A stretch of 64,000 nucleotides of DNA from an uncultured Gammaproteobacteria bacterium (GCA_964628885.1 CAZVMP010000001.1:43459-107458); one strand, 5' to 3'; shown: positions 1-50,901, counted from the first letter of the stretch. Numbers and translations are program-made. The notes: a model not told the origin generated them from the sequence alone.

Positions 1-70
1 AAGGGAATTTTGTTTTGACCTACCTTAATTGCCATTTCAGTCTCAATTCCATAACGATTTGATTTCCAAA

Positions 71-565
71 TTATTTTTTTATAAACCTCTTTTCTAAATC
101 CCAAAAAACCACACAACAAATCTTTTCTTTTAATATTAATATTTTTTCTATTAATAATTTAGCAAATTTATTACCGTTTCTTCTTATCCATGGTGATTTT
201 TTATTCAAAAGTCTATAGCCAAATACAATTGGGTATTTCTCTAATTCCTTTGTAAATTTAGGTAAATATTTTGGATTATGTTGACCATCAGCATCTATAA
301 ACACTATCGCCGTTCCTCCTAGTTTCCAAGCAATTTTTACCCCCGTCTTCATCGCTGCCCCCTTACCTAAATTCACTACATGATTAGCTATAATGACTCT
401 TTTATTTTTAACAAAACTTTTTTTTAGTATTTTTAATGAATCATCACTAGAACCATCGTTTACTAATATGATTTTAATTTCCTTGTCTACTAATAAAATT
501 TTATTTACCGTTTCTACCGCTCTATATTCTTCATTATAAATTGGAACAACAACAAAAATATTCAT
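71..565 (-). CDS. Glycosyltransferase family 2 (DPM1-like), N-terminal part; reading frame breaks in an A/T homopolymer region near 110-160 and the C-terminal part continues in another frame to the window edge
   Basis: Translation carries the GT2 signature 'VVVPIYNEE ... IILVNDGSSDDS ... FIDADGQH'. On the minus strand a second frame over 1-158 reads '...CGFLGFRKEVYKKIIWKSNRYGIETEMAIKVGQNKIP', the conserved GT2 C-terminal (SGFRAFRREV-like) region. So this is one gene split by a frameshift. Confidence 0.7.
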   Translation of the reverse strand: MNIFVVVPIYNEEYRAVETVNKILLVDKEIKIILVNDGSSDDSLKILKKSFVKNKRVIIANHVVNLGKGAAMKTGVKIAWKLGGTAIVFIDADGQHNPKYLPKFTKELEKYPIVFGYRLLNKKSPWIRRNGNKFAKLLIEKILILKEKICCVVFWDLEKRFIKK

Positions 566-839
566 ATCTAATATTTTCTACCTTAAATTAATTTTATAAA
601 CATCATAACACCCACTTTTTACCTGTGTTAAAACAAACTCATTATAACCCCAAAATCCATATTTTTTAAAAAACTTAATCACTTCCAAAATCTATCACAC
701 TAATAAACTTTTATCTACCATAATTTATCTTACAACCTATCTCCACCCAAAACCCTTATATCAACTGATTTACTTTCTCCTATATTTACGATATAGTTCG
801 TTATACTCTTATCTATTCCTCCCCAGATGAAATTAAGAA

Positions 840-3647
840 ATGGATTCAGTTGATAGTCAACAATTTGAACTATTAAATCAGATTCAAAATAATCTATTAG
901 GTAATGACCAGTTTTTTTCCCTTTATCTTGTCCTATCCCTACCCTTACCAGTTTCTTGGCGTCTAACACTTTACAACTTTCTAATTTCTCTACCCAAACC
1001 TTTCTCTTCTCCTCTTTGGTTAACCCTAATTATAGTACTTAGTCCACTTTTAATCCTTCTTCTCCTTTTTATCTTATACAAACTAATTTTAAAACTAATA
1101 AGAAATATCCCAAAAATTTTGTCCCTGTTTGGCGCTAAACCAGAAACTAAAAAGACTCTCCAATTAATCTTTCCTGCCGATACCAGTAAGTCAGCTTATG
1201 CCACCGAAGAACTTTTTAGCCTGCTTCACAGTCTTTCCCGTCAGTTAACTTTTAAAGATCGACTCTTTCAAAGAAAAAACGAATATTCTCTAGAAATAGT
1301 CTCCAGCAAAATTGATGGTATTCGCTATTTACTCTCCGCCGACTCAAAATTTATTCAAATTATCAAACACCATCTTTTATCCTACTTGCCCGGAATTAAA
1401 ATTAAAGAGGTCAATAACTATTTTACTGTCAAAAAAATAGCTAAAACTAAAGTTAAACTAATTGAACTTAAACAAGCCAATCATTTTGCCCTGCCGCTAG
1501 AAGACCAAAAGACCTTGTCAGAAAATGACCCGATAACCTATCTAACCGGAGCTATGACTAATTTAGCTGCCAAAAACTTAATCTGCTATCAAATAGTAGT
1601 CACTCCCATAATTAATCAATTCCACTCCAAGGTAGTCAGAGAACTAAGTGAGTTTAAGAATCGTCTTTACCAGAAATTACCTTTAACCGAAAAATTATTT
1701 AAAACTGGTTTTCAAAAACTGGAAGACGTACCAATACTATCTATATTTTATTTTTTGATAAAAGCAGTTTGTAAAATAATCTCAACTGTTGTCATTTTTG
1801 TTTTCAGTATGATAATTGGCTTTTTTGACACCTCCGGTAAGTTAGTCCCTTTTTTACAAAGAAAAGATATTTCACCCCAAGAAATTTTAAATCCTTATGA
1901 AAAACAGCTAGCAGTGGTGGTTAAAAATAAGATTGATTCTTCTTTGTTTGAAACCTCTATAAAAATCTTAATAATTGCTCAGAACAACAAGGATATTAAC
2001 ACTCGAGTTAGTGGTCTTTTGGCTAGTTTTGGCCAATTAAGTAGTTCTCACCAATCATTAATAAGAAAAAAATACTTGTTTAAAAATTTAAAAAATAGCT
2101 TAAAACAATTTGGCCAAAAAAGTTTATCAAAAGATACCACTCTTAACCCCAATCCGATTTTATCAATTTCTGAGCTAAGCGACCTTTATCATTTCCCTTA
2201 TGGCAAGAAGACTAAAAGTGAAGGCTTAGTTACCAGCCATAGCCCAGAGCTACCTTCTCCACTATCAGTTAAAAACAATCCTAGTCTAGATGTCGTCTTT
2301 GGTAAAAATAGATATGGAGAAAATGAAAGCAATATCGGTTTAACTGATGATGACCGTTCTCGCCATGTCTATACTATCGGTCAGACCGGTTTGGGTAAAA
2401 TTACCATTATTTTCCATATGGCCAAAGATGATATTCAAAAAGGCCGAGGAGTAGCTGTAATTGACCCTCATGGCGATTTAGCCCAAGACCTACTTTACAC
2501 TGTCCCCAAAAATAGATTTGATGACTGTATTTACCTTAATCCCTTTGATCTTAAATATCCCATTGGAATTAATCTAATAGAGCTGAAAGTCTCTGATGAT
2601 GAAGATGAGTTAGAACAGGAAAAAGAGTTGGTTTGTGAAAGTGTTATCTCAATTTTTAGAAGACTATTTTCCAGTAAAGAAAGTAGTGATTCTCATCGAA
2701 TTGAATACATTCTGCGTAATACTATTTATACTGCCTTTACCGTCAAAGACTCTACTATCTTTACTGTTTATGATTTGCTTAACGATCCCAACTTTAGAAA
2801 AACAATAATTTCAAATTTAGAAAATAAAAATCTGGTTAACTTTTGGAAAAATGAATTTGGTAAGGCAGGGAACTATCAGGCGGTTAAAATGGTTTCTGGA
2901 GTAACCGCCAAAATTGGTCGCTTCTTATTTTCCCCAACTGCCAAAAGAATGCTAGAGCAACCTAAATCTACCATTAATTTTGATGAAATTATTGATAAAG
3001 GCAAGATTTTAATTTGTAATTTAGCCGAAGGAAAACTAGGCGAAGATACCTCCCAACTTTTAGGCACCACCATTATTGCCAAACTTCAGCAATCATTTAT
3101 GAGAAGAGTTAGAACCAGGGCCTCAAAAAGAATTCCTTTCTATTTATTTGTTGATGAATTTCAAAACTTTGCCACCAGCTCCTTTAGTAAACTTCTCTCC
3201 GGTGGCCGAAAGTTTGGGCTAAGACTAACTATTGCCCAGCAATCAACCGCTCAACAGAATGATAGAAACATAGTTAATATTATCTTAGCTAATACCGGTA
3301 CCATTGTTTGTTTTAGAACCGCCAGCCCAATTGACGAGCAGTTAATGTTAGACCAGTTTTCCCCTTATGTTAAAAAGGGTGATATTGGTAATTTACCCCG
3401 ATTTAACTTCTATCTGAAGTTGTCAGCTATTAAACCGGAAGAGCCTTTTTCGGGTGAAACCATTCCTATAGTTTTAGACAGAGATGAAAACAGATTTAAT
3501 CAACTAATTAAAACTTCAAGAAAAAACTGGGCGAGAGCTTATCAAAAAGAAGTTAATAAAGTAACAAAATCAGAAAAGAAAACAGAAGTTAAAGAGGTTA
3601 AAAAACCTTTTCAAGAAGTATCTAACAAGAGAAAAATATCGGTATAG
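840..3647 (+). CDS. VirD4/TraG/TraD-like type IV coupling protein / AAA_10 (DUF87-like) ATPase, 935 aa, with N-terminal TM helices
   Basis: Hydrophobic N-terminal segments; P-loop-like 'TIGQTGLGKITII'; 'VAVIDPHGDL' (the DPxGE/D motif of TraG/VirB4/HerA-type ATPases); Walker B 'FYLFVDEFQNF'; 'GRKFGLRLTIAQQSTAQ' conserved C-terminal block. Family assignment is from motif recognition only. Confidence 0.6.
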   Translation: MDSVDSQQFELLNQIQNNLLGNDQFFSLYLVLSLPLPVSWRLTLYNFLISLPKPFSSPLWLTLIIVLSPLLILLLLFILYKLILKLIRNIPKILSLFGAKPETKKTLQLIFPADTSKSAYATEELFSLLHSLSRQLTFKDRLFQRKNEYSLEIVSSKIDGIRYLLSADSKFIQIIKHHLLSYLPGIKIKEVNNYFTVKKIAKTKVKLIELKQANHFALPLEDQKTLSENDPITYLTGAMTNLAAKNLICYQIVVTPIINQFHSKVVRELSEFKNRLYQKLPLTEKLFKTGFQKLEDVPILSIFYFLIKAVCKIISTVVIFVFSMIIGFFDTSGKLVPFLQRKDISPQEILNPYEKQLAVVVKNKIDSSLFETSIKILIIAQNNKDINTRVSGLLASFGQLSSSHQSLIRKKYLFKNLKNSLKQFGQKSLSKDTTLNPNPILSISELSDLYHFPYGKKTKSEGLVTSHSPELPSPLSVKNNPSLDVVFGKNRYGENESNIGLTDDDRSRHVYTIGQTGLGKITIIFHMAKDDIQKGRGVAVIDPHGDLAQDLLYTVPKNRFDDCIYLNPFDLKYPIGINLIELKVSDDEDELEQEKELVCESVISIFRRLFSSKESSDSHRIEYILRNTIYTAFTVKDSTIFTVYDLLNDPNFRKTIISNLENKNLVNFWKNEFGKAGNYQAVKMVSGVTAKIGRFLFSPTAKRMLEQPKSTINFDEIIDKGKILICNLAEGKLGEDTSQLLGTTIIAKLQQSFMRRVRTRASKRIPFYLFVDEFQNFATSSFSKLLSGGRKFGLRLTIAQQSTAQQNDRNIVNIILANTGTIVCFRTASPIDEQLMLDQFSPYVKKGDIGNLPRFNFYLKLSAIKPEEPFSGETIPIVLDRDENRFNQLIKTSRKNWARAYQKEVNKVTKSEKKTEVKEVKKPFQEVSNKRKISV

Positions 3648-3786
3648 CCGTCTATACCAAAAATATTTAATATTTATATGGAAAATACAATAAAAAGCAA
3701 TTTTAACTTTCCCTTCTTTACTCTTACTAAAGTAAGAGAGTGAATAAATAAAAGACTCTCTTGGGGGTTTCTAGAATAAAAAAAAG

Positions 3787-4524
3787 ATGAAAAATAAAAT
3801 AACTAAAAAACAAAAAGAAATAATAGTCCTGCTATATCGGTTTAGATTCTTAAATAGATATCAAATACAACAAATTCTAAATCATAAAAAACCACATCGA
3901 ATTAACCAGTGGTTAAAAAGCTTAGTTGATAAAAAAATAATTGGCAAAAATTATTCTAAAAAAATTGGTGACAATACTAAACCAGCAATCTATTACTTAG
4001 CAGTAAAAAGTAAAAGTTATTTAGCTGATCAACTTAAAGAAGATGATAAGTTAATAAAACGGATTTATGGTGAATCAAAAAGAAGTTTAAGGTTTATTAA
4101 TCATTGTTTAATCTCTGCCAATTTTTATCTAGAACTTAAAAAAACACATTTGTCAAAAGATATATTTTTCTATACTAAAGTTGATTTGTTAAGCCATGAC
4201 TATTTACCAGATAACCTGCCAGATGCTTATGTGGCTATCAAAGAAGGTAAAGATATCAAACGTTACTTTTTTGAAATAATTGATCAAGATACTCCTAGGT
4301 TTGCGATAAGAGCTAAGATTAAACAATACCTAGATTATTATGATAATAATACTTGGCAGGAAGTAACTAAACATCCTTTTCCAAGAATTCTTATCCTTTG
4401 TCCCAATAAGGTCATTAAAAAATATTTATCTAATTTTATCCCCAGAATTGCAGCCGAGGAGAATCAACCAGATGTTAATTTTTATCTCTCGGCTAAATTA
4501 TCAAAATGGTGGAGTGCTGTTTAA
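3787..4524 (+). CDS. Replication-relaxation (Replic_Relax, PF13814-like) family protein
   Basis: N-terminal winged-helix pattern 'QKEIIVLLYRFRFLNRYQIQQIL' is typical of replication-relaxation proteins of plasmids and ICEs. It lies directly downstream of the coupling ATPase. Confidence 0.55.
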   Translation: MKNKITKKQKEIIVLLYRFRFLNRYQIQQILNHKKPHRINQWLKSLVDKKIIGKNYSKKIGDNTKPAIYYLAVKSKSYLADQLKEDDKLIKRIYGESKRSLRFINHCLISANFYLELKKTHLSKDIFFYTKVDLLSHDYLPDNLPDAYVAIKEGKDIKRYFFEIIDQDTPRFAIRAKIKQYLDYYDNNTWQEVTKHPFPRILILCPNKVIKKYLSNFIPRIAAEENQPDVNFYLSAKLSKWWSAV

Positions 4525-4823
4525 CACCTAACCTGACTAAAAGGACGAGATTTAAAATATAAATCACGTTCTATTCCTAAACCAAAAGGGCCTTTTAAAC
4601 TCTCAAGCTCAGTAAGTGAAAAGTATCCCCATTCATCGTTATTATCTCCAAAGATAGAAACATATCCAAAAAACATTTTTTCAACTGGATTGTATTCGGT
4701 AGCATACCAGGTACCAGCACCAGTTGGATTAAAAAACTTAGCAATAACTACTGGGTCTTTTTTATCTTCTTGATTTCCTATTTGTTCAAATTTTTTTAAA
4801 AGTTCCTTTGTTAATAGCTTCAT
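4521..4823 (-). CDS. DUF2958 family protein (phage/plasmid-associated small protein)
   Basis: 'MKLLTKELLKKFEQIGNQED..DPVVIAKFFNPTGAGTWYATEYNP...GYFSLTELESLKGPFGLGIERDLYF' matches the conserved DUF2958 pattern. There is an AAGGAG RBS 8 nt upstream on the minus strand. Confidence 0.6.
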   Translation of the reverse strand: MKLLTKELLKKFEQIGNQEDKKDPVVIAKFFNPTGAGTWYATEYNPVEKMFFGYVSIFGDNNDEWGYFSLTELESLKGPFGLGIERDLYFKSRPFSQVRC

Positions 4824-4862
4824 TCTATTTTCTCCTTATTTTTTTTAAAAATATTAATAATT

Positions 4863-4889
4863 TAGGTAGGCTGTCTGCCCGCCTACCTA
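4863..4889. other. Perfect 9-bp inverted repeat hairpin (TAGGTAGGC-N9-GCCTACCTA) at the island/chromosome boundary
   Basis: Seen directly in the sequence. It lies between the convergent ends of the DUF2958 gene and the FN3-repeat gene. It is not followed by a clean U-tract on either strand. Confidence 0.4.
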
Positions 4890-5039
4890 AATTAAAAAGA
4901 AATATAAAAAAGCGGGGTGAAATTTGGCAAGGGCAAACGAAGTGCAGTTTATTGGAGTGAAACGGAAACCCTTGCCAAAAGAGGGGGAAGACCCCTTAAA
5001 AAAAGATATTTTTGTTTTTTAAAAAAACACCTAGATACT

Positions 5040-5879
5040 TCATTTAGTTATAAATACAAAAGGCGTTCCATTATTATCAAAGACTTTATCCCTAATCCTG
5101 ATTCGATAATAATAACTTGTTCCTGATCGAAGATATGATAATAAAATCCTATGATCTGTTGTCATCGAACTTTCAGCTGACATTAACACTAAACTTGCCG
5201 CCGTTATTCCATATTCGACTTTAGCAACTGATGGCTCACTTGAGGTAAAAATTATGGTTGCTGATTTACCGTCTGATCCTGGAGTGGCTCTTACGTTACT
5301 TATTAATAAACTATTTTCTATTTTATTTTCAATTGCTTGATTCTTGGTGATAAAAAAATAAGGTATTCCGTTATTATCAAAAGTTTTATCCCCAACTTTA
5401 ATTCGATAATAATAACTTGTTCCCGGTCTTAATGAGCTAAGAAATATTTGGTGAGTGTTCGTTCTTATAGTGCTTGCTGACATTAACACCAAACTTGCCG
5501 CCGTGGTGCCGTATTCAATTCTAGCCGAATTTGGCTCACTTAAAGTAAAAGTTATGGTTGCTGTTTTACCATCTGAACCAAGAGAAACAGAAATATTAGT
5601 TATTAATGTTGGATTATTACTGACGCTTGTTTGACCTAAATCAGAGTCTCGAGTTGTTTGTCCGACATTAATAACTGGAAGGGTTGGAGAAGTTATTACG
5701 TTCGGACAATATTTATCAGTTAATGAACTAAGAATATTACAAAAAGTGGAATTATAACCGGTGGTAGCTCCTAAAACATTTTTCTTAGAATTATTTATTA
5801 TTCTATTTACTTGCAAAGTTGCTAGAAAAAAAATTGAAAAAATAAAACTTACGATAAGGGTTTTTCTAATATAATCCAT
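5040..5879 (-). CDS. Secreted protein with two tandem fibronectin type III-like (purple-acid-phosphatase-N-like) domains
   Basis: N-terminal signal peptide 'LIVSFIFSIFFLATLQV'. Two ~85-aa repeats ('GSDGK[ST]ATI.FT.SEP..A..EYG.TAASLVLMSA ... GTSYYYRI...DK.FDNNG.P..FITK'). The repeat is also visible at DNA level (~5040-5330 vs ~5355-5640). Confidence 0.6.
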   Translation of the reverse strand: MDYIRKTLIVSFIFSIFFLATLQVNRIINNSKKNVLGATTGYNSTFCNILSSLTDKYCPNVITSPTLPVINVGQTTRDSDLGQTSVSNNPTLITNISVSLGSDGKTATITFTLSEPNSARIEYGTTAASLVLMSASTIRTNTHQIFLSSLRPGTSYYYRIKVGDKTFDNNGIPYFFITKNQAIENKIENSLLISNVRATPGSDGKSATIIFTSSEPSVAKVEYGITAASLVLMSAESSMTTDHRILLSYLRSGTSYYYRIRIRDKVFDNNGTPFVFITK

Positions 5880-6053
5880 AGCAAATTACCAACTAAAAAA
5901 GGTTATAGCTTAAACTAATAATCTATATATCTAATAAAATATTATCATTTTCTGTTTAACAAATTAATACTAATGACCTAAAACTTCTTAAAAACCTTAG
6001 TGATGAACAATAAAATTTTTAGCTTATCCAACTACATGCTAATATGATCTTGT

Positions 6054-6515
6054 ATGAGTTTTTTGCCACAGGAAGAATGTTTTGTTTGTAATCGAATTAA
6101 GTTGATTAAAGAGGATAAAAACAAATATTTTGTTAAGGAAATGAAAACAGGTTACGTGGTCATGTCTGATTTTCAATATTTTTATGGATACACAATTTTT
6201 TTATCTAAATTACATGTAACCGAGTTACATAATTTAGGTAAAAAGAGAGAATTGTTCTTAAATGAAATGGCGATTGTAGCTGAGGCGGTAATTAAAGCTT
6301 TTAAGCCTAAAAAACTAAACTATGAATTGCTTGGAAATAGCGACTCTCATACACATTGGCACCTAATTCCCAGGTATGGAAATGATCCAAAACCAGACAC
6401 GGCGATTTGGGCAATTAACTACTCGATAAGGTGTAGTGATAAATCTCGACCAACGGACCCTGAGTTAAATAAAATGAAAAAGAAACTAATCTCAGAGCTG
6501 GATAAATTAATCTAA
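6054..6515 (+). CDS. HIT (histidine triad) family hydrolase
   Basis: Histidine triad 'HTHWHLIPR' and an N-terminal 'CFVC' zinc-binding-like motif. Confidence 0.75.
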   Translation: MSFLPQEECFVCNRIKLIKEDKNKYFVKEMKTGYVVMSDFQYFYGYTIFLSKLHVTELHNLGKKRELFLNEMAIVAEAVIKAFKPKKLNYELLGNSDSHTHWHLIPRYGNDPKPDTAIWAINYSIRCSDKSRPTDPELNKMKKKLISELDKLI

Positions 6516-6576
6516 CTCTCAAGATTTAATTTTATTAACAAACTTTTTCTCTATTAATATTTTGTTAAAATAGCCC

Positions 6577-7629
6577 ATGGTTAAGTTTAATTTCTTAATA
6601 CTAACTGCCGCGACTTTTTTCCTCTCCCTACTAGACACCTATTTTTACCCAGGATTTAGTCAAAAACATTTTAATCTCAACCCTGATCTTATCTTACTAA
6701 TATGGATATCAATTACTTTACTTGTATCACTCATTAATAAAAATATATTTTACGATTGGTTTAAAAAAATAAACAATCGATTTTTATTTCCTTTTTTATT
6801 AATTTTTTATGGTGTTATTTTATTTTTTGAAAAAAATAATTATCCAAACTTCGTCTTTACCTTCTTTCATGTCCATCGTTTATTACTTCTAAACCTAGTT
6901 ATCATCTCAGGAATTATTTTTTACATTTCATATCCAAAATTTATCAATAAATTCAACCAAAGAGCCTATTTACTTGCTCCACTTTTAATTACTATTTCTT
7001 ACTTTTTTTATTTTTACAACGGAGATATTTTTTTTAAACTAATACAAGAAGATGGCTATTATGAATATTTACAATTTTTTCTTTATCTTTTTTCTTCCAT
7101 TTTATCTACCAAAATATTTTTAAAATATAAAGAAAAGTCAAAATCCAAAATACATATAATTTTTTTCTTATTACTTAGTCTTGGATTATTTTTTGTTGCT
7201 GGTGAAGAAATTTCTTGGGGTCAAAGAATTTTTAATATCCAAACACCACCAAATTATGCTGCAATTAATACTCAAAAAGAAATAACTATTCACAACTTAA
7301 ATTACATGCAAAAAATTTTACATTCATCCTACATTCTTGTAGCTTTATACGGATTACTTTCTAATTATATTTTAAGAAAATTATTTCCTAAAAAATATCA
7401 AAAATATTACCAGTTAACCCTTCCTTTTTCTTTAACTTTTTATTTTCTAGCCCTATTTATCCACTATGTCTTACATGATTATTTTCAATTTATGTATATC
7501 CTAACTCCTGATTTACGTGCCAACATGTTTCTCTCACAAGAAATTGTTGAAACTTATCTTTCAATTGCCATGTTTTTATATACCTACAAAACCTATAAAA
7601 CCATTAACAATAAAAAAGCACTTTCTTAA
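6577..7629 (+). CDS. Polytopic integral membrane protein of unknown function (paralog of 61803..62858)
   Basis: About 10 hydrophobic segments. It shares the motif 'GEEISWGQRIFNIQTP...EITIHN' with the minus-strand protein at 61803..62858 ('LEEISYGQRIFGWKTP...EINIHN'), and both also carry 'EDGYYEYLQF / EDAILEYMQF'. Confidence 0.6.
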   Translation: MVKFNFLILTAATFFLSLLDTYFYPGFSQKHFNLNPDLILLIWISITLLVSLINKNIFYDWFKKINNRFLFPFLLIFYGVILFFEKNNYPNFVFTFFHVHRLLLLNLVIISGIIFYISYPKFINKFNQRAYLLAPLLITISYFFYFYNGDIFFKLIQEDGYYEYLQFFLYLFSSILSTKIFLKYKEKSKSKIHIIFFLLLSLGLFFVAGEEISWGQRIFNIQTPPNYAAINTQKEITIHNLNYMQKILHSSYILVALYGLLSNYILRKLFPKKYQKYYQLTLPFSLTFYFLALFIHYVLHDYFQFMYILTPDLRANMFLSQEIVETYLSIAMFLYTYKTYKTINNKKALS

Positions 7630-7679
7630 TAACCTTTCTAGTATAATTACTTTATCCATATTAATGTTAAAATCCAAAC

Positions 7680-8318
7680 ATGGAAAAAATTATGTCAAAA
7701 GAAACCTTAAAATTAGAAAAACCTGTCTTCATTGGTGTTTCCGGACCCTCTGGGGCTGGAAAAGATTATTTAATCTCTGCCAGTGGTCAGCAATTTAATC
7801 AAATGGGGATTACCACAAAGGTCGTCCAAATGACAACCGAAAGACCTGATCGAGGAGCTGGAGTAGAAACAAAAATTTGTATTTCATCAGATGAATACAC
7901 TAAATTAGAAAACGATAACCAGTTAATCGGCAGTCATCAAAACGGTGAATACCGTTATGGTTATAAACAATCTGATATTCTCCAAGCTACTCAAGAATGC
8001 CAAAATGGCGGAATTGTCTTTATTGAATTAAACCCTTTTGCTCAACCAGATTTTCCAAACGAATTAAAAACCAAAATGAATGTTGATATGATTGCTTGGA
8101 TTGGTGTCCAAAACACCCTAAAACAAACAGAAATCAGTATGAGGGAAAGAGGTGAGTCTGAGGATTCTATTAAAGAAAGAATTGCTAAGGTTAAAAAATA
8201 TTATGACGCCATGGCCGACAACCCTTTTATTTCCTATGTTGACAATGGCCCAACTAATCGCACCGGCTCAACTGGAGATTTTGTTAAAATAATTAAAGAC
8301 AAAATAGAAAATTTATAA
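7680..8318 (+). CDS. P-loop NMP kinase, guanylate kinase-like
   Basis: Walker A 'GVSGPSGAGKDYL' followed by 'TTERPDRGAGVE' (compare Gmk 'TTRPPRPGE') and 'NGEYRYGYK' (compare 'G.YYGT'). Confidence 0.5.
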   Translation: MEKIMSKETLKLEKPVFIGVSGPSGAGKDYLISASGQQFNQMGITTKVVQMTTERPDRGAGVETKICISSDEYTKLENDNQLIGSHQNGEYRYGYKQSDILQATQECQNGGIVFIELNPFAQPDFPNELKTKMNVDMIAWIGVQNTLKQTEISMRERGESEDSIKERIAKVKKYYDAMADNPFISYVDNGPTNRTGSTGDFVKIIKDKIENL

Positions 8319-8319
8319 T

Positions 8320-9615
8320 ATGCATAAAATTGCTGTTATTGGAGTTGGTTATGTTGGTTTAGTTACTAGCACCTGTTTTGCCCAGCTTGGTAATCAAGTT
8401 ATTGGCCTTGATATTGATAGTCAAAAAATAGCTAATCTTAAGAAAGGAATTATTCCTATCTATGAAGAAGGTTTGACCAAAATGGTTAAAGAAAATCTTA
8501 AATCCGGCAACCTTTCTTTTACTACTGATTTTAAAACTGCTGTTCAAAACTCCGATATTATTTTTATTGCTGTTGGCACTCCACCGCTTCCTGATGGTAG
8601 TGTTAACTTAAGTTATGTCAAGAATGCTGCCGAATCTATTGGTAAAAACATCAACGGCTATAAGGTAATTATTAATAAATCTACTGTTCCTATTGGTACT
8701 GGCGATGTTGTTAAAAATATTATCAAACGCGTCTACAAAGGTAGCTTTGATGTCGTTTCTAATCCTGAATTTCTCCGTGAAGGTAGTGCAGTGGCTGATT
8801 TTATGAACCCTGACCGAATTATTATTGGCAGCGACTCTCCAAAATCTAAAGAAATTATTAATAAACTTTATGCTCCTCAAAATTCTCCCATCGTTAATAC
8901 TGATATTAAAACTGCCGAGTTAATTAAATATGCTTCTAATGCTTTTTTAGCCACTTCCATTTCTTTTATCAACTCTGTTGCTAATATCTGCGAAAAAATT
9001 GGAGCTGATGTCAACAACGTTTCTTTAGGGATGAAACTTGATCCTCGTATTGGTCAAAAAGCCTTTTTAGCTGCTGGAGTTGGTTATGGTGGTAGCTGTT
9101 TTCCTAAAGACGTCAAAGGATTAATTCAAATTGCTCATGAAAATAAAGTTAGTTTTGATATTCTTGACGCCGTTGAAACTACTAATTTAGCTCAAAAAAA
9201 ATCCCTTCTTCCCAAAATTCAAAGTCTTCTGGACAGTGACTTAAATAATAAAAATATTACTATTTGGGGACTAGCTTTTAAGCCTAATACTGATGATGTT
9301 CGAGAAGCTCCCTCACTAACCATTGTTAAACAATTAGTCGATAGGGGAGCCGTCGTTACTGCCGTTGACCCCATTGCTACTGATAACTTTAAAAAATTTT
9401 TTGATGGTCAAATAAAATATCAGACTGATCTGATAAAATCAGTTACTAATGCCGATTGTCTGGTTATTGTTACCCAATGGCCTGAATTCAAAAACGTCAA
9501 TCTTAGCCAAGTCAAAAAAGTTATGAAACATCCCAATATCATTGATGGTCGCAATCTCTTTGACCCAAAAATTATCAAAAAACTTGGTTTTAATTATATT
9601 TCCGTTGGCCGCTGA
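8320..9615 (+). CDS. ugd: UDP-glucose 6-dehydrogenase
   Basis: N-terminal Rossmann 'KIAVIGVGYVGLVTSTCFAQLGNQVIGLDID', catalytic 'GGSCFPKD', and typical length 431 aa. Confidence 0.9.
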   Translation: MHKIAVIGVGYVGLVTSTCFAQLGNQVIGLDIDSQKIANLKKGIIPIYEEGLTKMVKENLKSGNLSFTTDFKTAVQNSDIIFIAVGTPPLPDGSVNLSYVKNAAESIGKNINGYKVIINKSTVPIGTGDVVKNIIKRVYKGSFDVVSNPEFLREGSAVADFMNPDRIIIGSDSPKSKEIINKLYAPQNSPIVNTDIKTAELIKYASNAFLATSISFINSVANICEKIGADVNNVSLGMKLDPRIGQKAFLAAGVGYGGSCFPKDVKGLIQIAHENKVSFDILDAVETTNLAQKKSLLPKIQSLLDSDLNNKNITIWGLAFKPNTDDVREAPSLTIVKQLVDRGAVVTAVDPIATDNFKKFFDGQIKYQTDLIKSVTNADCLVIVTQWPEFKNVNLSQVKKVMKHPNIIDGRNLFDPKIIKKLGFNYISVGR

Positions 9616-14540: not shown

Positions 14541-15537
14541 AACCCACCTCAATCTTAACTACTCTATCATTATTCCTAATTATAATGGTTCTGCCTTTAT
14601 CCTTGATTGTCTTAAATCACTTTTTTCTGCCATTAAAAAATGTCCCAAAAACCAGTTTGAAATTATCTTAGTAGATAACAACTCTCACGATAATAGTCCC
14701 AAAATATTTAAAAGTTTTTTTAAAAAAAATAATCTACCTCATCTCCAATCTAATATTTATCAGCTAACTTCTAACTTGGGTTTTGCTGCTGCCGTCAACC
14801 ACGGTATTAATCAAGCCAAACATTCTTTTGTGGTTGTTACCAATAATGATATCGTTTTAAAATCTGACTGGTTTAAGCTTGTTTCCAATGCTATTGCTCA
14901 AAATCAATTACCTAAAATTTCAACCTTCTTTGGAACCGTTTTAACCCGTGACGGTAAAAAATTTGAATCTCAAGGATTAAAATTCTTTCTAAACGGGCGC
15001 TGTCATAATATTTCCAACGGCAAAAAATTTATTTCCTCTAAACTAAGCTCTCAAAACATCCCTTCCTGGGGAGCTTCTGCCGCCTTAGCCGTTTACCCTA
15101 AAAAAATAATTCAATCAGTTGGACTCTTTGATTCAACTTTTTTTGCCTATGAAGAAGATGTTGATTTATCCCTTCGTTTTCATAAACTTGGCTACCAATC
15201 TCTCTACATTCCCCAAGCTATTTCTTACCACTGGGGAGGCTCTACCAGTAAACTAATGGGGAATTTCCGTCATCGTATGGATGCTAAAAATTGGATTTAT
15301 ATTATCATTAAAAATTATTCTGCCCAAGAATTTTGGACAAACTGTTGGCAAATTTTTATTGAACGTCTTAGAAATTTTTCCGGACTTATCAAAAACACTC
15401 TTAAAATTTATAAACTAAAATCAATTTTCCGCCTACCACTAGATATCATTTCCACTTACGGAGAAGTTATCATTAAACTTCCAGAAATGTTTCAAAAACG
15501 CCATCAAATCCAAAAAATGATAAAATATCATTATTAA
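14530..15537 (+). CDS. Glycosyltransferase family 2
   Basis: 'YSIIIPNYNGSAFI...EIILVDNNSHDNS' and the 'YEEDVDLSLR' (DxD region). Confidence 0.8.
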   Translation: MKSKTHLNLNYSIIIPNYNGSAFILDCLKSLFSAIKKCPKNQFEIILVDNNSHDNSPKIFKSFFKKNNLPHLQSNIYQLTSNLGFAAAVNHGINQAKHSFVVVTNNDIVLKSDWFKLVSNAIAQNQLPKISTFFGTVLTRDGKKFESQGLKFFLNGRCHNISNGKKFISSKLSSQNIPSWGASAALAVYPKKIIQSVGLFDSTFFAYEEDVDLSLRFHKLGYQSLYIPQAISYHWGGSTSKLMGNFRHRMDAKNWIYIIIKNYSAQEFWTNCWQIFIERLRNFSGLIKNTLKIYKLKSIFRLPLDIISTYGEVIIKLPEMFQKRHQIQKMIKYHY

Positions 15538-15577
15538 TTTTTATTAAACATCCTAAAGCCGCCCTTCTAATAACAAT

Positions 15578-16708
15578 ATGATTATCGGAATTGATGTTTC
15601 TTCTGTCTGTTACCAAACCGGCGTTAGTAACTATACTTTAAATTTAATCAGAAATTTAATTACTCTTGATAAAACCAATCACTATAAATTATTTTATTCT
15701 TCACTTAGAATGCCCTTACCCGAATCTATTAAGTCGCTTGGGCAAAAAACTAATGTTACTATTTTTCATTACCGTCTTCCGCCAACCTTGTTACAATTTA
15801 TTTGGAATCAGTTTAGAATTTTACCTATAGAACTTTTTATCGGTAAATGTCATCTCTTTCACACTTCTGACTGGACTCAGCCTCCGACTTTTTTTGCCAA
15901 AACTATTGCTACTATTCACGACCTAACTCCATTCTTATATCCCCAATGGCACCACCCTAAGGTTATTAATGCTCACCGTCGCAAAATGCATTGGGCTGTC
16001 AAAAAATGTCAACATCTCATTTGTGTCTCTAAAAACACCCAATCTGATTTACTAAAACTATTTCCTAGTTTCAATCCTAAAAACACCAGCATTATTTACG
16101 AATCAGCTGAATCAAAATATGGCCAATTCCTCAAACTACCCCCTTTGTCTCAAGAAAAGAAAAAACTAGTCATCAAAAAACAGTATGGTTTAGAAAACTT
16201 TATTTTAGCCCAAGGCACGAGAGAACCTAGAAAAAACCTTAATCGTCTTATGGAAGCCTTTATTCTCTTTAAAAAGAAGTATCCTAAAACTAGGATTCAA
16301 CTGGCAATTACTGGCAAATATGGTTGGGGACAAGATATTACCATCAAAGATCCTAGTATTAAAATACTCGGATTTATCCCCGAGAAAAATATGGTTGGAC
16401 TCCATGCCAGTGCTATCTGTTTAGCCTATCCATCACTTTACGAAGGTTTTGGTCTCCCGATTATTAAATCTCTTAAAGTTGGTGTTCCAGTCATCACCAG
16501 TAATAATTCCTCATTAATAGAAATTTCTCAAGGAGCCGCCGTTTTAGTTGACCCAACTTCTACTAAAGATATTGCTAAAGCTATAGAAAAAATTGTTCAT
16601 TCTAAAAAAACCCGCCAACAACTTAGCCATAAAGGATTAGAAATCGCTAAAAAATTCAGTTGGCAAACTGCTGCCAAAGAAACCTTACAAATTTATAATT
16701 CTATTTAA
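15578..16708 (+). CDS. Glycosyltransferase family 1
   Basis: 'YEGFGLPIIKSLKVGVPVITSNNSSLIEI'. Confidence 0.8.
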   Translation: MIIGIDVSSVCYQTGVSNYTLNLIRNLITLDKTNHYKLFYSSLRMPLPESIKSLGQKTNVTIFHYRLPPTLLQFIWNQFRILPIELFIGKCHLFHTSDWTQPPTFFAKTIATIHDLTPFLYPQWHHPKVINAHRRKMHWAVKKCQHLICVSKNTQSDLLKLFPSFNPKNTSIIYESAESKYGQFLKLPPLSQEKKKLVIKKQYGLENFILAQGTREPRKNLNRLMEAFILFKKKYPKTRIQLAITGKYGWGQDITIKDPSIKILGFIPEKNMVGLHASAICLAYPSLYEGFGLPIIKSLKVGVPVITSNNSSLIEISQGAAVLVDPTSTKDIAKAIEKIVHSKKTRQQLSHKGLEIAKKFSWQTAAKETLQIYNSI

Positions 16709-16709
16709 T

Positions 16710-17822
16710 ATGTTAATCGGCATTGATGGTAATGAAGCCAATGTTGTTAATAAAGTTGGAGTTGGTCAATATGCCTTTAAACTCCTTTGGTATCTCTATC
16801 ACCTCGATCAAAAAAATCATTACTTAATTTACCTCAAAGACCAACCATCCCCAGACCTACCTCCAGCTAACACTAATTGGCAATATCAAGTTTTTGGCCC
16901 AGCCAAACTTTGGACCAGGTTTGCTCTACCACTCCGATTACTGTTTCAAAAACAAAAACTTAATCTTTTTTTCTCTCCCAGTCACTATTCTCCAATTTTT
17001 TCAAGATTTCCAACAATTCCCACTATTCACGATATTGGTTATCTCCAATTTAAAGATCAATTTAATCACAAAGACCTACACCAACTAATTTATTGGACTC
17101 AACAATCCCTCCAACAAGCCAAAGAGATTGTCACTGTCTCTCAATTTTCTAAAAACGAAATTATTAAAACTTATCAAGTAGACCCTAAAAAAATTACTAT
17201 TGCCTACAACGGGGTTGATAACCCTCCAAAAATTAATTCCAAAACTCAACAAAAAATTCTATCAAGCTACCAGCTCCAAACCAACAACTATTATCTCTAT
17301 CTCGGAACTCTTAAACCTAATAAAAATATTCCTTTTCTTATTCAATCTTTTGCCCTACTTCTTAAAACTTCAAAACCTCCTCACCCAAAGTTAGTTATTG
17401 CTGGTAAAAAAGGCTGGTTGTTTGACGAAATTTTTGCCACTGTTAAAAAAGAGGGGATTACTAATCAAGTAGTTTTTACTGACTTTGTTAGCGAAGATCA
17501 AAAATGGACACTTTATCAACACGCCATCGCTTCAGTTTTACCCAGCACTTACGAAGGCTTTGGAATTCCCGCCATTGAATCAATGAAAGTTGGCACTCCG
17601 GTTGTGGTTTCTTCCATCCCTCCCTTTAAAGAAGTCGTTCAAGATAGTGGTTTATTTATTAATCCTGCCGACAAAAATGATCTTTGTCAAAAAATGATTG
17701 AGATTGCCAATCCAAAGATAAATAAAAAGTTTTCAAAACTAGCCAAGGCTCAAGCTGATAAATTTACCTGGGAATCAACCGCAAAAACAATTATCAATCT
17801 ATTTAATAAATATCAAAAATAG
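16710..17822 (+). CDS. Glycosyltransferase family 1
   Basis: 'YEGFGIPAIESMKVGTPVVVSSIPPFKEVV'. Confidence 0.8.
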   Translation: MLIGIDGNEANVVNKVGVGQYAFKLLWYLYHLDQKNHYLIYLKDQPSPDLPPANTNWQYQVFGPAKLWTRFALPLRLLFQKQKLNLFFSPSHYSPIFSRFPTIPTIHDIGYLQFKDQFNHKDLHQLIYWTQQSLQQAKEIVTVSQFSKNEIIKTYQVDPKKITIAYNGVDNPPKINSKTQQKILSSYQLQTNNYYLYLGTLKPNKNIPFLIQSFALLLKTSKPPHPKLVIAGKKGWLFDEIFATVKKEGITNQVVFTDFVSEDQKWTLYQHAIASVLPSTYEGFGIPAIESMKVGTPVVVSSIPPFKEVVQDSGLFINPADKNDLCQKMIEIANPKINKKFSKLAKAQADKFTWESTAKTIINLFNKYQK

Positions 17823-48093: not shown

Positions 48094-50901
48094 ATGTCTC
48101 ATTTCAAAACCATTCCTCAAAATATAAAACCAACTGATCTTGAAGAAGACACTATAAAATTCTGGAAAGATCAAAAAATTTTTGAAAAATCATTAGAATC
48201 ACGACCTGAAAACGATAGTTATTGTTTTTATGACGGCCCTCCATTTATCACTGGATCTCCACATCACGGGAGCTTACTCCCTGGTATTGCCAAAGATGTT
48301 ATTCCTAGATATTGGACCATGAAAGGAAAACGAGTTAGACGTGTCTGGGGATGGGATTGTCACGGCCTTCCAGCTGAAAATAAAGTTGAAGAACTTCTTG
48401 GTCTTAAAAGTAAAAAAGATATTGAGGCTATTGGTATTAAAAAATATATCGACGCTTGCTATTCTTATGTCCAAAATGTCTCTCAAGAATGGCCCTGGTA
48501 TATTGATAGAACTGGTAGGTGGGTTGATTTTGATAACGCTTATAAAACTATGGATTTAGATTATATGGAAAGCGTTATGTGGGCTTTTTCTAAAATATAC
48601 AATAAGGGTTTAATTTATAAAAGCCATCGAGTATCCCTCTTTTGTCCCAGATGTTCCACTCCCTTATCTAATTTTGAAATTGCCATGGACAATTCATATA
48701 AAATGGTGGACGACCCGGCCATCTTCATAAAATTTAAAATCAAGAACCAAGACAAATATATTGTTGCTTGGACTACCACCCCATGGACTCTCCCAGCTAA
48801 TTTAGCTCTAGCGATTAATCAAAATGAAACTTATGTTGAAGTTGTAGTTGATAATCAAACTCTTATTTTTGCTAAATCCAGGATTGAAGCTGTTTTAAAT
48901 AAAAATAATTATAAAATTATCAAAGAATTCCCTGGAAAAGAGCTCGTCGGATTAAAATTTGAACCTTTATATCATTTCTATAAGACTACTGAAAAAGACT
49001 ATCATATCTTTCATGGCGACCTGGTTTCTATGGCTGATGGTACTGGAGTCGTTCACATTGCTCCTGGATTTGGTGAAGATGATGCCACTTTAGGAAAAGA
49101 ATTTAATTTATCAGTCATTAATCACGTCGATGATGAAGGTAAAATTGATCCCATAGTAACTCCCTTTGCTAATCTATTTGTCAAAAAAGCCGATCCTTTA
49201 ATTATCAATGACTTAAAATCCCGAAACCTATTACTAAAAGAAGAAAAAATTAACCATAGTTACCCTTTCTGTTACCGTTGTGGCACTCCTTTAATCTATA
49301 AAACCCAAAATGCCTGGTATCTTGATGTCCAAAAAATAAAAAAACAAATGATTGATACCAATCAAAAAATTAATTGGGTTCCTGACCATATTAAAGATGG
49401 CCGCTTTGGACAGGGGATAGAAACCGCTCCTGACTGGTGTTTATCTCGTTCCCGATATTGGGCCTCTCCCATCCCCATTTGGGAATGTGATTGTGGTCAA
49501 AGATATGTTCCTTCAAGCATTGCCGACCTAGAAGCAGCCTCCGGTCAAAAAGTTACCAATCTTCATAAGCCAGAAATTGATGAAATTACTATCAAATGTC
49601 ACAAATGTCACCAAACCGTTCACCGTGTTCCTGAAGTTTTAGATTGTTGGTTTGAATCCGGATCTATGCCTTATGCTCAATTTCACTATCCTTTTAAAAA
49701 CAAAAATGTTTTTGAAAAAAGTTTTCCAGCTGATTATATTATCGAATATATAGGTCAAACTCGAGGATGGTTTTATACTTTACATGTTTTATCAAATGCC
49801 CTATTTACCTCTGAGTCCTTTAAGAATTGTATTGTCACCGGCGTTATTATGGGCACTGACGGTCGTAAAATGAGTAAACTTCTCAAAAATTACCCTGATC
49901 CTAAAGCCGTAATCCAGAAATATGGCGGAGATGCTTATCGTCTCTATCTCATGAGTAGCGTTGTTATGACTGGAGAAAATATTAACATTGATGAAAGAGA
50001 ATTTGAAAATCAAGTCAAAAACATTCTTTTACCACTATTCAACTCATTCAAATATTTTCTTACTTATGCCAATCTTCACAACTGGTCTCCCAACACAAAA
50101 CCAGTTAATTCACCCCACCCGCTTGATTCTTGGATTATAAACCAAGCTAATAATTTAACTAATAACATTGCCAAATCATTAGAAGAGTACAACTTAGTCA
50201 ATGCTACTAGACTAATTGAGCCTTTTATAAACGATCTCTCGCGATGGTATATTCGTCAATCACGAGATAGATTTGTTAATGGTGATCAACAGGCCCTCCA
50301 AACTATTTGGCAAGTTTTAGTTCAATTTAGCCTCTCAACCGCTCCTATAATTCCCTTTATTACCGAATATTTCTGGCAAAAATTAGTCGTTTCTGTAGAT
50401 AAAAGTAAACCTGAATCAATTCATCTCGAATTTTATCCAGAAGCAAAGTCTTTTGACCCTAAATTAGCCAACGATATGTCCTTAGTTCAACAAATTTGTG
50501 AACAAGGCAATATGATTCGAAAAACTAATCAAATCAGCACTAGACAGCCATTATCCCTACTTACAATTCATTCTAATCAAAAATTTAATTTAGACAAAGA
50601 TTTAGTTGATATCATCAAAAATGAAATTAACGTTAAAAATATTGTCTTTACCAACTCAAACCAAAACTTACTTATAACTTTAGATACTAATATTACTCCC
50701 AAACTAAAAGCAGAAGGAGAAGCTCGTGACCTTATTAGACAAGTTCAAAACTTACGTAAAGAGCTTAATCTAAACTTAAAAGATAAAATAAAAATATACT
50801 CACCTGATTGGCCAACCGATTTTGAAGCTGAAATTAAATTAAAAACCTTAGCTCAATCTATTGATAAAGCCAATCAATTAAAAATCGAAAAAATCAGCTA
50901 A
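48094..50901 (+). CDS. ileS: Isoleucine--tRNA ligase
   Basis: 'FYDGPPFITGSPHHGS' (HIGH-type), 'GWDCHGLP', 'KMSKLLKNYPDP' (KMSKS), 935 aa. Confidence 0.9.
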   Translation: MSHFKTIPQNIKPTDLEEDTIKFWKDQKIFEKSLESRPENDSYCFYDGPPFITGSPHHGSLLPGIAKDVIPRYWTMKGKRVRRVWGWDCHGLPAENKVEELLGLKSKKDIEAIGIKKYIDACYSYVQNVSQEWPWYIDRTGRWVDFDNAYKTMDLDYMESVMWAFSKIYNKGLIYKSHRVSLFCPRCSTPLSNFEIAMDNSYKMVDDPAIFIKFKIKNQDKYIVAWTTTPWTLPANLALAINQNETYVEVVVDNQTLIFAKSRIEAVLNKNNYKIIKEFPGKELVGLKFEPLYHFYKTTEKDYHIFHGDLVSMADGTGVVHIAPGFGEDDATLGKEFNLSVINHVDDEGKIDPIVTPFANLFVKKADPLIINDLKSRNLLLKEEKINHSYPFCYRCGTPLIYKTQNAWYLDVQKIKKQMIDTNQKINWVPDHIKDGRFGQGIETAPDWCLSRSRYWASPIPIWECDCGQRYVPSSIADLEAASGQKVTNLHKPEIDEITIKCHKCHQTVHRVPEVLDCWFESGSMPYAQFHYPFKNKNVFEKSFPADYIIEYIGQTRGWFYTLHVLSNALFTSESFKNCIVTGVIMGTDGRKMSKLLKNYPDPKAVIQKYGGDAYRLYLMSSVVMTGENINIDEREFENQVKNILLPLFNSFKYFLTYANLHNWSPNTKPVNSPHPLDSWIINQANNLTNNIAKSLEEYNLVNATRLIEPFINDLSRWYIRQSRDRFVNGDQQALQTIWQVLVQFSLSTAPIIPFITEYFWQKLVVSVDKSKPESIHLEFYPEAKSFDPKLANDMSLVQQICEQGNMIRKTNQISTRQPLSLLTIHSNQKFNLDKDLVDIIKNEINVKNIVFTNSNQNLLITLDTNITPKLKAEGEARDLIRQVQNLRKELNLNLKDKIKIYSPDWPTDFEAEIKLKTLAQSIDKANQLKIEKIS

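Follow-up and report, generated by a model that had tools for sequence, protein, structure and literature searches.

In streptococci, the triad of a serine integrase, a VirD4 coupling protein and a MobC relaxase defines the integrative mobilisable element class IME_Class_8 (Coluzzi et al. 2017, PMC5357655), and pairs of a type IV coupling protein (T4CP) with a MOBC relaxase are already known from the plasmids CloDF13 and pAD1. The prototype relaxase, TraX, consists of a winged helix and a nuclease domain and acts without a covalent intermediate (PMC12857230). For Patescibacteria, a recent survey reports 5,713 VirD4-like T4CPs; among its 109 relaxases MOBC is the most frequent class (58), and 39 relaxase genes adjoin t4cp. 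It concludes that the type IV secretion systems (T4SSs) of these bacteria are mostly not conjugative, relaxases being rare (Quinonero-Coronel et al. 2025, PMC12102498). Here we analysed a stretch of 64,000 nucleotides (GCA_964628885.1, CAZVMP010000001.1:43459-107458; hereafter the window) that comes from a Patescibacterium, a bacterium of the candidate phyla radiation. Near its start lie three genes, for a T4CP-like ATPase, a Replic_Relax protein and a DUF2958 protein. Together with their surroundings (about 734-5964), they very probably represent the degenerate DNA-processing end of an integrative conjugative or mobilisable element from a family that circulates in Patescibacteria, in both Microgenomates and Saccharibacteria.

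Relatives of the window locus share with IME_Class_8 the same three signature protein families, compact and adjacent, in a monoderm host. They differ from it in phylum, and their proteins are not detectably close by BLAST; the family described here adds a DUF8128 region, DUF2958, a 63-amino-acid (aa) gene, a repeat followed by a structured motif and, in some members, a T4SS, and the window copy has no integrase. The likeness to CloDF13 MobB/MobC and pAD1 TraX is one of description: a restriction-endonuclease-like relaxase with an N-terminal winged helix, a dedicated T4CP, and an origin of transfer (oriT) composed of an inverted repeat and further sites distant from nic (PMC12857230), although those are plasmids and not integrated. 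The window locus is evidently one of the T4CP/MOBC pairs counted in the survey, and the VirB4, PrgI and TrbC pilin genes beside two related modules are of the type described in its available part; that part gives counts and mentions no integrase or recombinase, DUF2958, motif, cargo junction or decayed copies (PMC12102498). Actinomycete integrative and conjugative elements (with a single FtsK-like TraB) and the archaeal Ced system also place one large membrane ATPase beside a replication/relaxation-type protein and an integrase. We rejected both models, as the NTPase is closest to TrwB, TraD and DotL and not to FtsK, the module includes a relaxase-family protein, and a VirB4-type T4SS occurs in relatives. 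The window locus is a new, degenerate case of a known element type; what is new is the conserved motif, with partial copies that bracket cargo, and the breadth of the family. Dead or dying, the window copy itself matters little. A coherent element type on dozens of contigs from several classes of Patescibacteria offers concrete candidates for conjugation in uncultivated, reduced bacteria, and its motif a precise non-coding element in which to look for an oriT or an RNA function.

The mobile origin of the locus is apparent from its relatives. Maps of open reading frames (ORFs) and hidden Markov model matches on homologue contigs recover one order in dozens of contigs: a large serine recombinase (minus strand), a small gene of 96-113 aa (S113), often an XRE helix-turn-helix gene, the ATPase, Replic_Relax, the 63-aa gene (S63, minus), DUF2958 (minus), the inverted repeat, the motif and variable cargo. 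The relaxase gene adjoins the ATPase gene in all close relatives, and 38 of 50 distinct relaxase genes are followed by a DUF2958 gene in convergent orientation. In 26 of the 27 informative loci, a recombinase gene is found no more than 3.5 kb upstream of the module, and each relative has different flanking sequence. Beside the module, two of the loci (L213 and L214) encode TrbC and T4SS pilins, PrgI, a TraC-like protein, VirB4 and an M23 peptidase, and in L214 the recombinase and XRE genes occupy the end opposite the T4SS cluster. These relatives bear out the first-pass annotation of the window, which had been made from the sequence alone, in its view that the three adjacent genes are real and derive from a remnant that resembles a plasmid or an integrative conjugative element.

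This arrangement is confined to one branch of a much larger ATPase superfamily. A scan of GTDB species genomes returned at least 595 loci with superfamily relatives, among which only the closer ones (at least about 39% identity) have a relaxase gene nearby and are also linked to DUF2958 and the motif. Relatives at 27-30% identity are widespread patescibacterial T4CP paralogues, often split into two genes. Homologues of the window ATPase at 42-84% identity are numerous, the closest named ones being T4SS DNA-binding domain proteins in Candidatus Shapirobacteria and also in Levybacteria.

Compared with these relatives, the window copy lacks most of what would make an element mobile. Using the window as the query in blastn, DNA homology begins on the left at 734 in L084 (81% identity), 792 in L085 and 838 in L001, and runs through the three genes and the inverted repeat to about 5004. 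The interval 5043-5964 aligns with L213 and L214, where homologues (63% and 58% identity) of a gene with fibronectin type III (FN3) repeats lie between the DUF2958/motif end and the T4SS cluster; by this comparison, the FN3 gene belongs to the element and not to the chromosomal flank. Because both alignments stop at 5964, we take this position as the right end. The remnant thus extends from about 734 to about 5964, roughly 5 kb, rather than from 840 to 4889; the inverted repeat, once proposed as its right boundary, lies well inside (Table 1). Immediately left of this region, L084, L085 and L001 have S113 and the serine recombinase, and the window has unrelated sequence and a family 2 glycosyltransferase (GT2) gene. 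The recombinase, S113, XRE/helix-turn-helix, S63 and T4SS proteins of relatives have no match anywhere in the 64-kb window (tblastn), which agrees with the earlier impression that integrase and T4SS genes are absent. A sister scaffold (L210) extends 6 kb further left and holds only polysaccharide genes there and none of these element genes. By deletion, the window copy has lost the 63-aa gene that relatives have between their relaxase and DUF2958 genes. With the recombinase, its partner, XRE, the 63-aa gene and the secretion genes all missing, we regard the window copy as a remnant unable to move on its own; the first-pass alternative of a minimal mobilisable module is unlikely on the same grounds.

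Table 1. Features of the remnant and its immediate borders (window positions; empty cells, no strand given).
Feature	Coordinates	Strand	Basis or content
Upstream region of the ATPase gene	734..839		Left end of DNA homology to the closest relatives
T4CP-like ATPase, 935 aa	840..3647	+	Pfam, NCBIfam, PDB profile, AlphaFold (AF2) model and Foldseek
Walker A, codons 514-522	2379..2405	+	GQTGLGKIT in the window; GQTGSGKTT in sister assemblies and relatives
Replic_Relax protein, 245 aa, candidate MOBC-type relaxase	3787..4524	+	PF13814, E = 1e-11
DUF2958 small protein, 100 aa	4521..4823	-	Pfam, E = 5e-21; convergent with the relaxase gene
Perfect inverted repeat, 14-bp stem, 9-nt loop	4858..4894		Arms 4858-4871 and 4881-4894
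Conserved structured non-coding motif, ~90 nt	4911..5000	+	Conservation, covariation, covariance model
Surface protein, two FN3/purple-acid-phosphatase-N-like repeats	5040..5879	-	Pfam
Upstream region of the FN3 gene	5880..5964		Right end of homology to L213 and L214

The ATPase is best named T4CP-like, given a predicted TrwB-like fold together with poorer superposition on HerA and VirB4. In the AF2 model (predicted local distance difference test score, pLDDT, 79), the NTPase domain aligns with TrwB-deltaN70 over about 450 columns at 16-18% identity and a template-modelling (TM) score, TMt, of 0.69-0.73, and with HerA at TMt 0.49-0.51 (Foldseek). Searched against solved structures, the family profile finds TrwB (E = 4e-8) and DotL (E = 2e-6). 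Pfam matches are TrwB_AAD_bind (27 bits), TraG-D_C (25.2) and DUF87 (23.3); among NCBIfam models, SXT_TraD matches at E = 4e-12, TraD models reach 45 bits against a cut-off of 366, and CedD is weak at 32 bits. In L213 and L214, a VirB4 gene separate from the ATPase gene stands beside the module. Hydrophobic helices at about residues 58-95 and 298-329, seen in both sequence and model, precede the NTPase, which begins near residue 480, and between the transmembrane helices sits a DUF8128 region of about 200 aa that is unusual for coupling proteins. An all-alpha insertion of seven helices interrupts the NTPase domain at residues 588-705. The DPHGD block (D542-D546) is invariant or nearly so in 51 homologues, and the Walker B motif DEFQ (772-775) is intact; both this block and the TraG-type C-terminal match had been recognized at first reading. 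A second ORF of 935 aa in the window (48094-50901) was considered as a paralogue and discarded: it has no similarity to the ATPase, and the equal length is a coincidence. In the spacer between the ATPase and relaxase genes, a 9-bp inverted repeat (3639-3660) starts within the last ATPase codons and resembles a terminator on the minus strand only, according to a pattern scan.

The adjoining 245-aa protein is a candidate MOBC relaxase. It matches PF13814 with 45.7 bits against a cut-off of 25.3, over profile positions 3-185 of 191, and this family is the MobC family of CONJscan (PMC5357655); the earlier statement that no relaxase is visible therefore does not hold. Replic_Relax has been placed in the PD-(D/E)xK superfamily (PMC3424549), and the window protein appears to consist of a winged helix and a PD-(D/E)xK-type domain. 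Four acidic positions are conserved among 50 relatives, E96 (E or D in 46), D146 (42), E163 (E or D in 46) and D166 (D or E in 40), and all four are present in the window protein.

We hypothesize that, in intact members, the large serine recombinase and a small partner gene, often with an XRE repressor, would serve integration and excision. The Replic_Relax protein would process the oriT, and the membrane-anchored, TrwB-like ATPase would couple the DNA to a monoderm-type T4SS, with its genes on the element in some members and presumably in the chromosome in others. The best candidate for the oriT would be the inverted repeat and the ~90-nt motif next to DUF2958, with variable cargo following the motif.

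The window copy of the ATPase gene carries an unusual Walker A motif. L210 and L211, independent ENA assemblies of the population from which the window comes, differ from it over 14.5 kb at only three positions, all C-to-T changes (2392, 2401 and 2402). The resulting substitutions, S518L and T521I, are unique to the window among the 51 homologues; at position 521, where a Ser/Thr coordinates Mg, 50 of them have T or S and the window alone has Ile. Together, the three changes destroy Walker A in this assembly, where the motif (GLGKIT) has lost its Ser/Thr, and the first-pass proposal that the ATPase serves DNA export is unsupported. Such a P-loop knock-out, in one strain, would be consistent with decay of, or counter-selection against, an orphan coupling ATPase. 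The changes may also be an artefact.

Several observations weigh against a decayed conjugative or mobilisable element. The Pfam T4CP profiles are marginal (PF10412, 27 bits against a cut-off of 20.5; PF12696, 25.2 against 22), the best full-length Foldseek matches are VirB4 proteins (E = 1e-13, but at TM scores of 0.31-0.39), and the PADLOC model mad8 of the MADS defence system matches residues 483-858 with 70.7 bits, far above the Pfam T4CP profiles. The relaxase candidate has no match in PLSDB (tblastn), and the CloDF13 ORFs gave no Pfam match, so that no direct comparison with a MOBC prototype was obtained. Comparison of 600-860 with 5880-6060, and a search across 1-7000, yielded AT-rich chance matches only and no flanking or att-like repeats; an empty site, sought through the FN3 neighbour, was not located, no syntenic genome being retrieved. 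The GC content of the module is 0.321 against 0.327 in the rest of the window, and GC at third codon positions (GC3) is within the range; such native composition implies that the acquisition is old or that the donor was a close relative. All three ORFs are full length, and ratios of non-synonymous to synonymous substitution (dN/dS) against L084, L085 and L001 are low (ATPase 0.10-0.15, relaxase 0.16-0.22, DUF2958 0.12-0.17), indicating purifying selection through most of the divergence of these genes. As the P-loop is also canonical in L210 and L211, the module may still act in part of the population.

Intact ORFs, purifying selection, the canonical Walker A of the two sister assemblies and the full conservation of the repeat and motif would also suit a still-functional, non-autonomous mobilisation unit, that is, an oriT, a relaxase and a dedicated coupling protein fixed in the chromosome that export DNA through a chromosomal T4SS in trans, in the manner of an Hfr strain, or are rescued by the recombinase of a related element. 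The available part of the survey reports chromosomal T4SS and orphan t4cp genes in most Patescibacteria (PMC12102498). Such a unit is nonetheless distinctly unlikely: there is no recombinase or att site and hence no excision route, the 70 kb covered hold no T4SS gene, the P-loop of this assembly is destroyed, and the 63-aa gene and XRE, constant in relatives, are missing. Pairs of an ATPase and a PD-(D/E)xK nuclease are common in defence systems, and the mad8 match, weak HerA matches in PADLOC and the DUF87 match raise the prospect of a domesticated module, HerA-nuclease or MADS-like, in which a membrane HerA/FtsK-like ATPase and the nuclease act against invading DNA. We consider this very improbable. 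Neither the nuclease nor DUF2958 has a PADLOC match, and no other MADS gene lies among the window neighbours; the pair consistently accompanies a serine recombinase and variable cargo, and in two loci a T4SS; the fold is closest to TrwB, all-alpha domain included; and PF13814 is a relaxase family (PMC5357655). Barely credible, and already contradicted, is descent from a chromosomal FtsK/HerA-type or TraB-like translocase of double-stranded DNA. The abundance of superfamily homologues in Patescibacteria and the DUF87 match could be cited in its favour, but linkage to the relaxase, DUF2958 and the motif is restricted to the orthologous subfamily, relatives at 27-30% identity are paralogues and thus other genes, and HerA superposes less well than TrwB (TMt 0.49-0.51 against 0.72). 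The conserved synteny expected of a chromosomal gene is the reverse of what relatives show, with different flanks in every one.

At the junction between backbone and cargo, the element carries its most conserved sequence: a motif between DUF2958 and the cargo that is 83-97% identical between elements whose ATPases share 41-62%. An alignment of 91 distinct full copies defines its layout. A 5′ tail (GCGGGGTGAA) is followed by a helix of 11 bp (P1) that encloses two mini-hairpins (P2 and P3) and the junctions GCAGTTTATTGGA and GGAAA, and a GC-rich hairpin (P4) lies at the 3′ end. P2 and P3 vary in length and mostly carry GNA triloops, and both junction sequences are invariant. At least 120 metagenome contig stretches carry the motif by pattern search; none was found in IMG/VR by the same means or in PLSDB by blastn. 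No Rfam family matches at gathering thresholds, the best sub-threshold match being CncR1 (29 bits against 76).

Several lines of evidence support the predicted fold. Paired cells account for 93.9%, compared with 88.1% in shuffles (0 of 500); covariation scores 0.196, compared with 0.094, six pairs show compensatory changes, and registers slid along the motif pair only 25-60%. G.T exceeds A.C in P1 by 41 to 5, which indicates that the plus strand folds, and the many lengths of P2 indels rule out a coding sequence. A covariance model (R1) gave 13 matches, all in loci with an orthologous ATPase and relaxase, and one marginal match in about 65 paralogue loci; in the window it finds the motif once, at 109.9 bits. 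RNAalifold favours an alternative helix that joins the 5′ tail to the 3′ strand of P1, so the motif has pairings that exclude one another. An ORF of 69 aa (4917-5126, plus strand) overlaps the motif, and one of 79 aa (730-969, minus strand) overlaps the beginning of the ATPase gene; both are probably spurious, judging by the indels seen in the motif and by the homologues. The motif contains a possible sigma-70 promoter for DUF2958 (TTGCCA, 18 nt, TATATT), a candidate we dismissed since other repeat classes do not keep it, and P4 was likewise dismissed as an intrinsic terminator, a T-run following it in a minority of copies only.

Ahead of the motif stands the inverted repeat, the longest within 1-7000. 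The repeat first reported here was real and perfect, as stated; its stem measures 14 bp rather than 9, and it reaches beyond the 4863-4889 originally assigned. Relatives have a perfect repeat at the same position, of at least 7 bp in 71 of 77 copies and at least 9 bp in 58 of 77; for comparison, 80-nt windows taken at random from related loci contain a perfect stem of 9 bp or more in 1.2% of cases. In 63 of the 71 copies, 15-19 nt separate the end of the repeat from the motif. Its position is kept and its sequence is variable, with 21 arm sequences and an arm consensus of about TRGGWAGC. These comparisons portray the repeat as a conserved internal feature and not as an element border. DUF2958 is the constant partner of this adjoining non-coding region.

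The steady distance between the repeat and a conserved sequence matches the classic layout of an oriT, and GNA mini-hairpins are a common feature of stable single-stranded DNA. The repeat and motif also adjoin DNA-processing genes and mark the junction of backbone and cargo; for these reasons they are the best oriT candidate of the element, and we tentatively propose, as a possibility short of even odds, that they form an oriT or another single-stranded DNA site. One finding counts against binding of the repeat by the relaxase: the relaxase of L214 is 36% identical to that of the window, yet the repeat arms are almost the same, so that the repeat does not track relaxase divergence. About equally likely is a plus-strand RNA, either a leader or a small RNA, in which the alternative helices would act as a switch. 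Less likely than either is a recombination site for cargo capture. About 30 further copies are truncated at the 5′ end and retain J23, P3, the 3′ strand of P1 and P4. In seven loci (L085, L128, L159, L178, L155, L213 and L214) truncated and full copies bracket cargo in direct orientation, and the breakpoints of the truncated copies are graded and not at a single point. Fairly unlikely, though worth stating, is a broader proposal: the repeat and the ~90-nt three-way-junction motif would constitute a new class of element marking the backbone/cargo junction, either as a folded stretch of single-stranded DNA that serves as oriT or single-strand origin, or as a leader RNA with switch-like behaviour, and the truncated copies would be footprints of integron-like, site-specific cargo capture. 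If that were true, the family would supply the missing evidence that Patescibacteria conjugate, with MOBC relaxases.

Between the window and L214, identity is 80% for DUF2958, 62% for the ATPase and 36% for the relaxase, and the repeat arms and motif are nearly identical. Such uneven rates between the window module and those of L213 and L214 suggest shuffling within the family.

Cargo varies widely among loci and is of the kinds that mobile elements usually carry. In 60 of 88 cases, the first cargo ORF points in the same direction as the motif. The most recurrent cargo directly after the motif is a diversity-generating retroelement (Laminin_G_3 target, bAvd and reverse transcriptase), present in 8 of about 88 loci, including L001 (17638-22631) and L084 (6428-10199). 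Cargo in L086 comprises restriction-modification, acetyltransferase and Ble-like genes, and Fic, BlaR1 and T4SS pilin genes occur in other loci. L214 has an OLD-family TOPRIM ATPase and a UvrD helicase, a Gabija-like pair (5402-9021), between the T4SS cluster and the FN3 gene. In L002, a mercury set (HMA/MerP-like, MerT, a MerA-like reductase and an ArsR/MerR-type regulator; 14566-17111) is inserted between the relaxase gene and DUF2958, followed by BlaI/BlaR-like and DsbA genes.

The DUF2958 protein is modelled with high confidence as a small beta-barrel (pLDDT 91), and its structural neighbours are uninformative. Among plasmids in PLSDB, 91 carry DUF2958; on a Bacteroides conjugative plasmid it stands next to ParB, PcfM and an orphan methylase.

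Contigs with the ATPase or the element (L010, L013, L006, L026, L055 and others; GC 32-49%) also occur in metagenome-assembled genomes labelled Methylococcaceae, Gammaproteobacteria, Planctomycetota, Chlamydiae and Bulleidia; mis-binning seems a more likely explanation for these labels than transfer across phyla.

The window DNA has a low GC content of about 0.33, and the remnant is set in a cell-envelope gene cluster. Its description as lying between glycosyltransferase genes is loosely right, with a frameshifted GT2 gene on the left and a GT4 gene further to the right; on that side, however, the FN3 gene, HIT proteins, a UDP-glucose dehydrogenase and an epimerase come first. The GT2 gene on the left (window 1-565; L210 6097-6779) is split by an apparent frameshift into ORFs of 164 and 78 aa in all assemblies, and heads an envelope-polysaccharide cluster of GT2, DUF2304, GT2, epimerase and DUF2142 genes.

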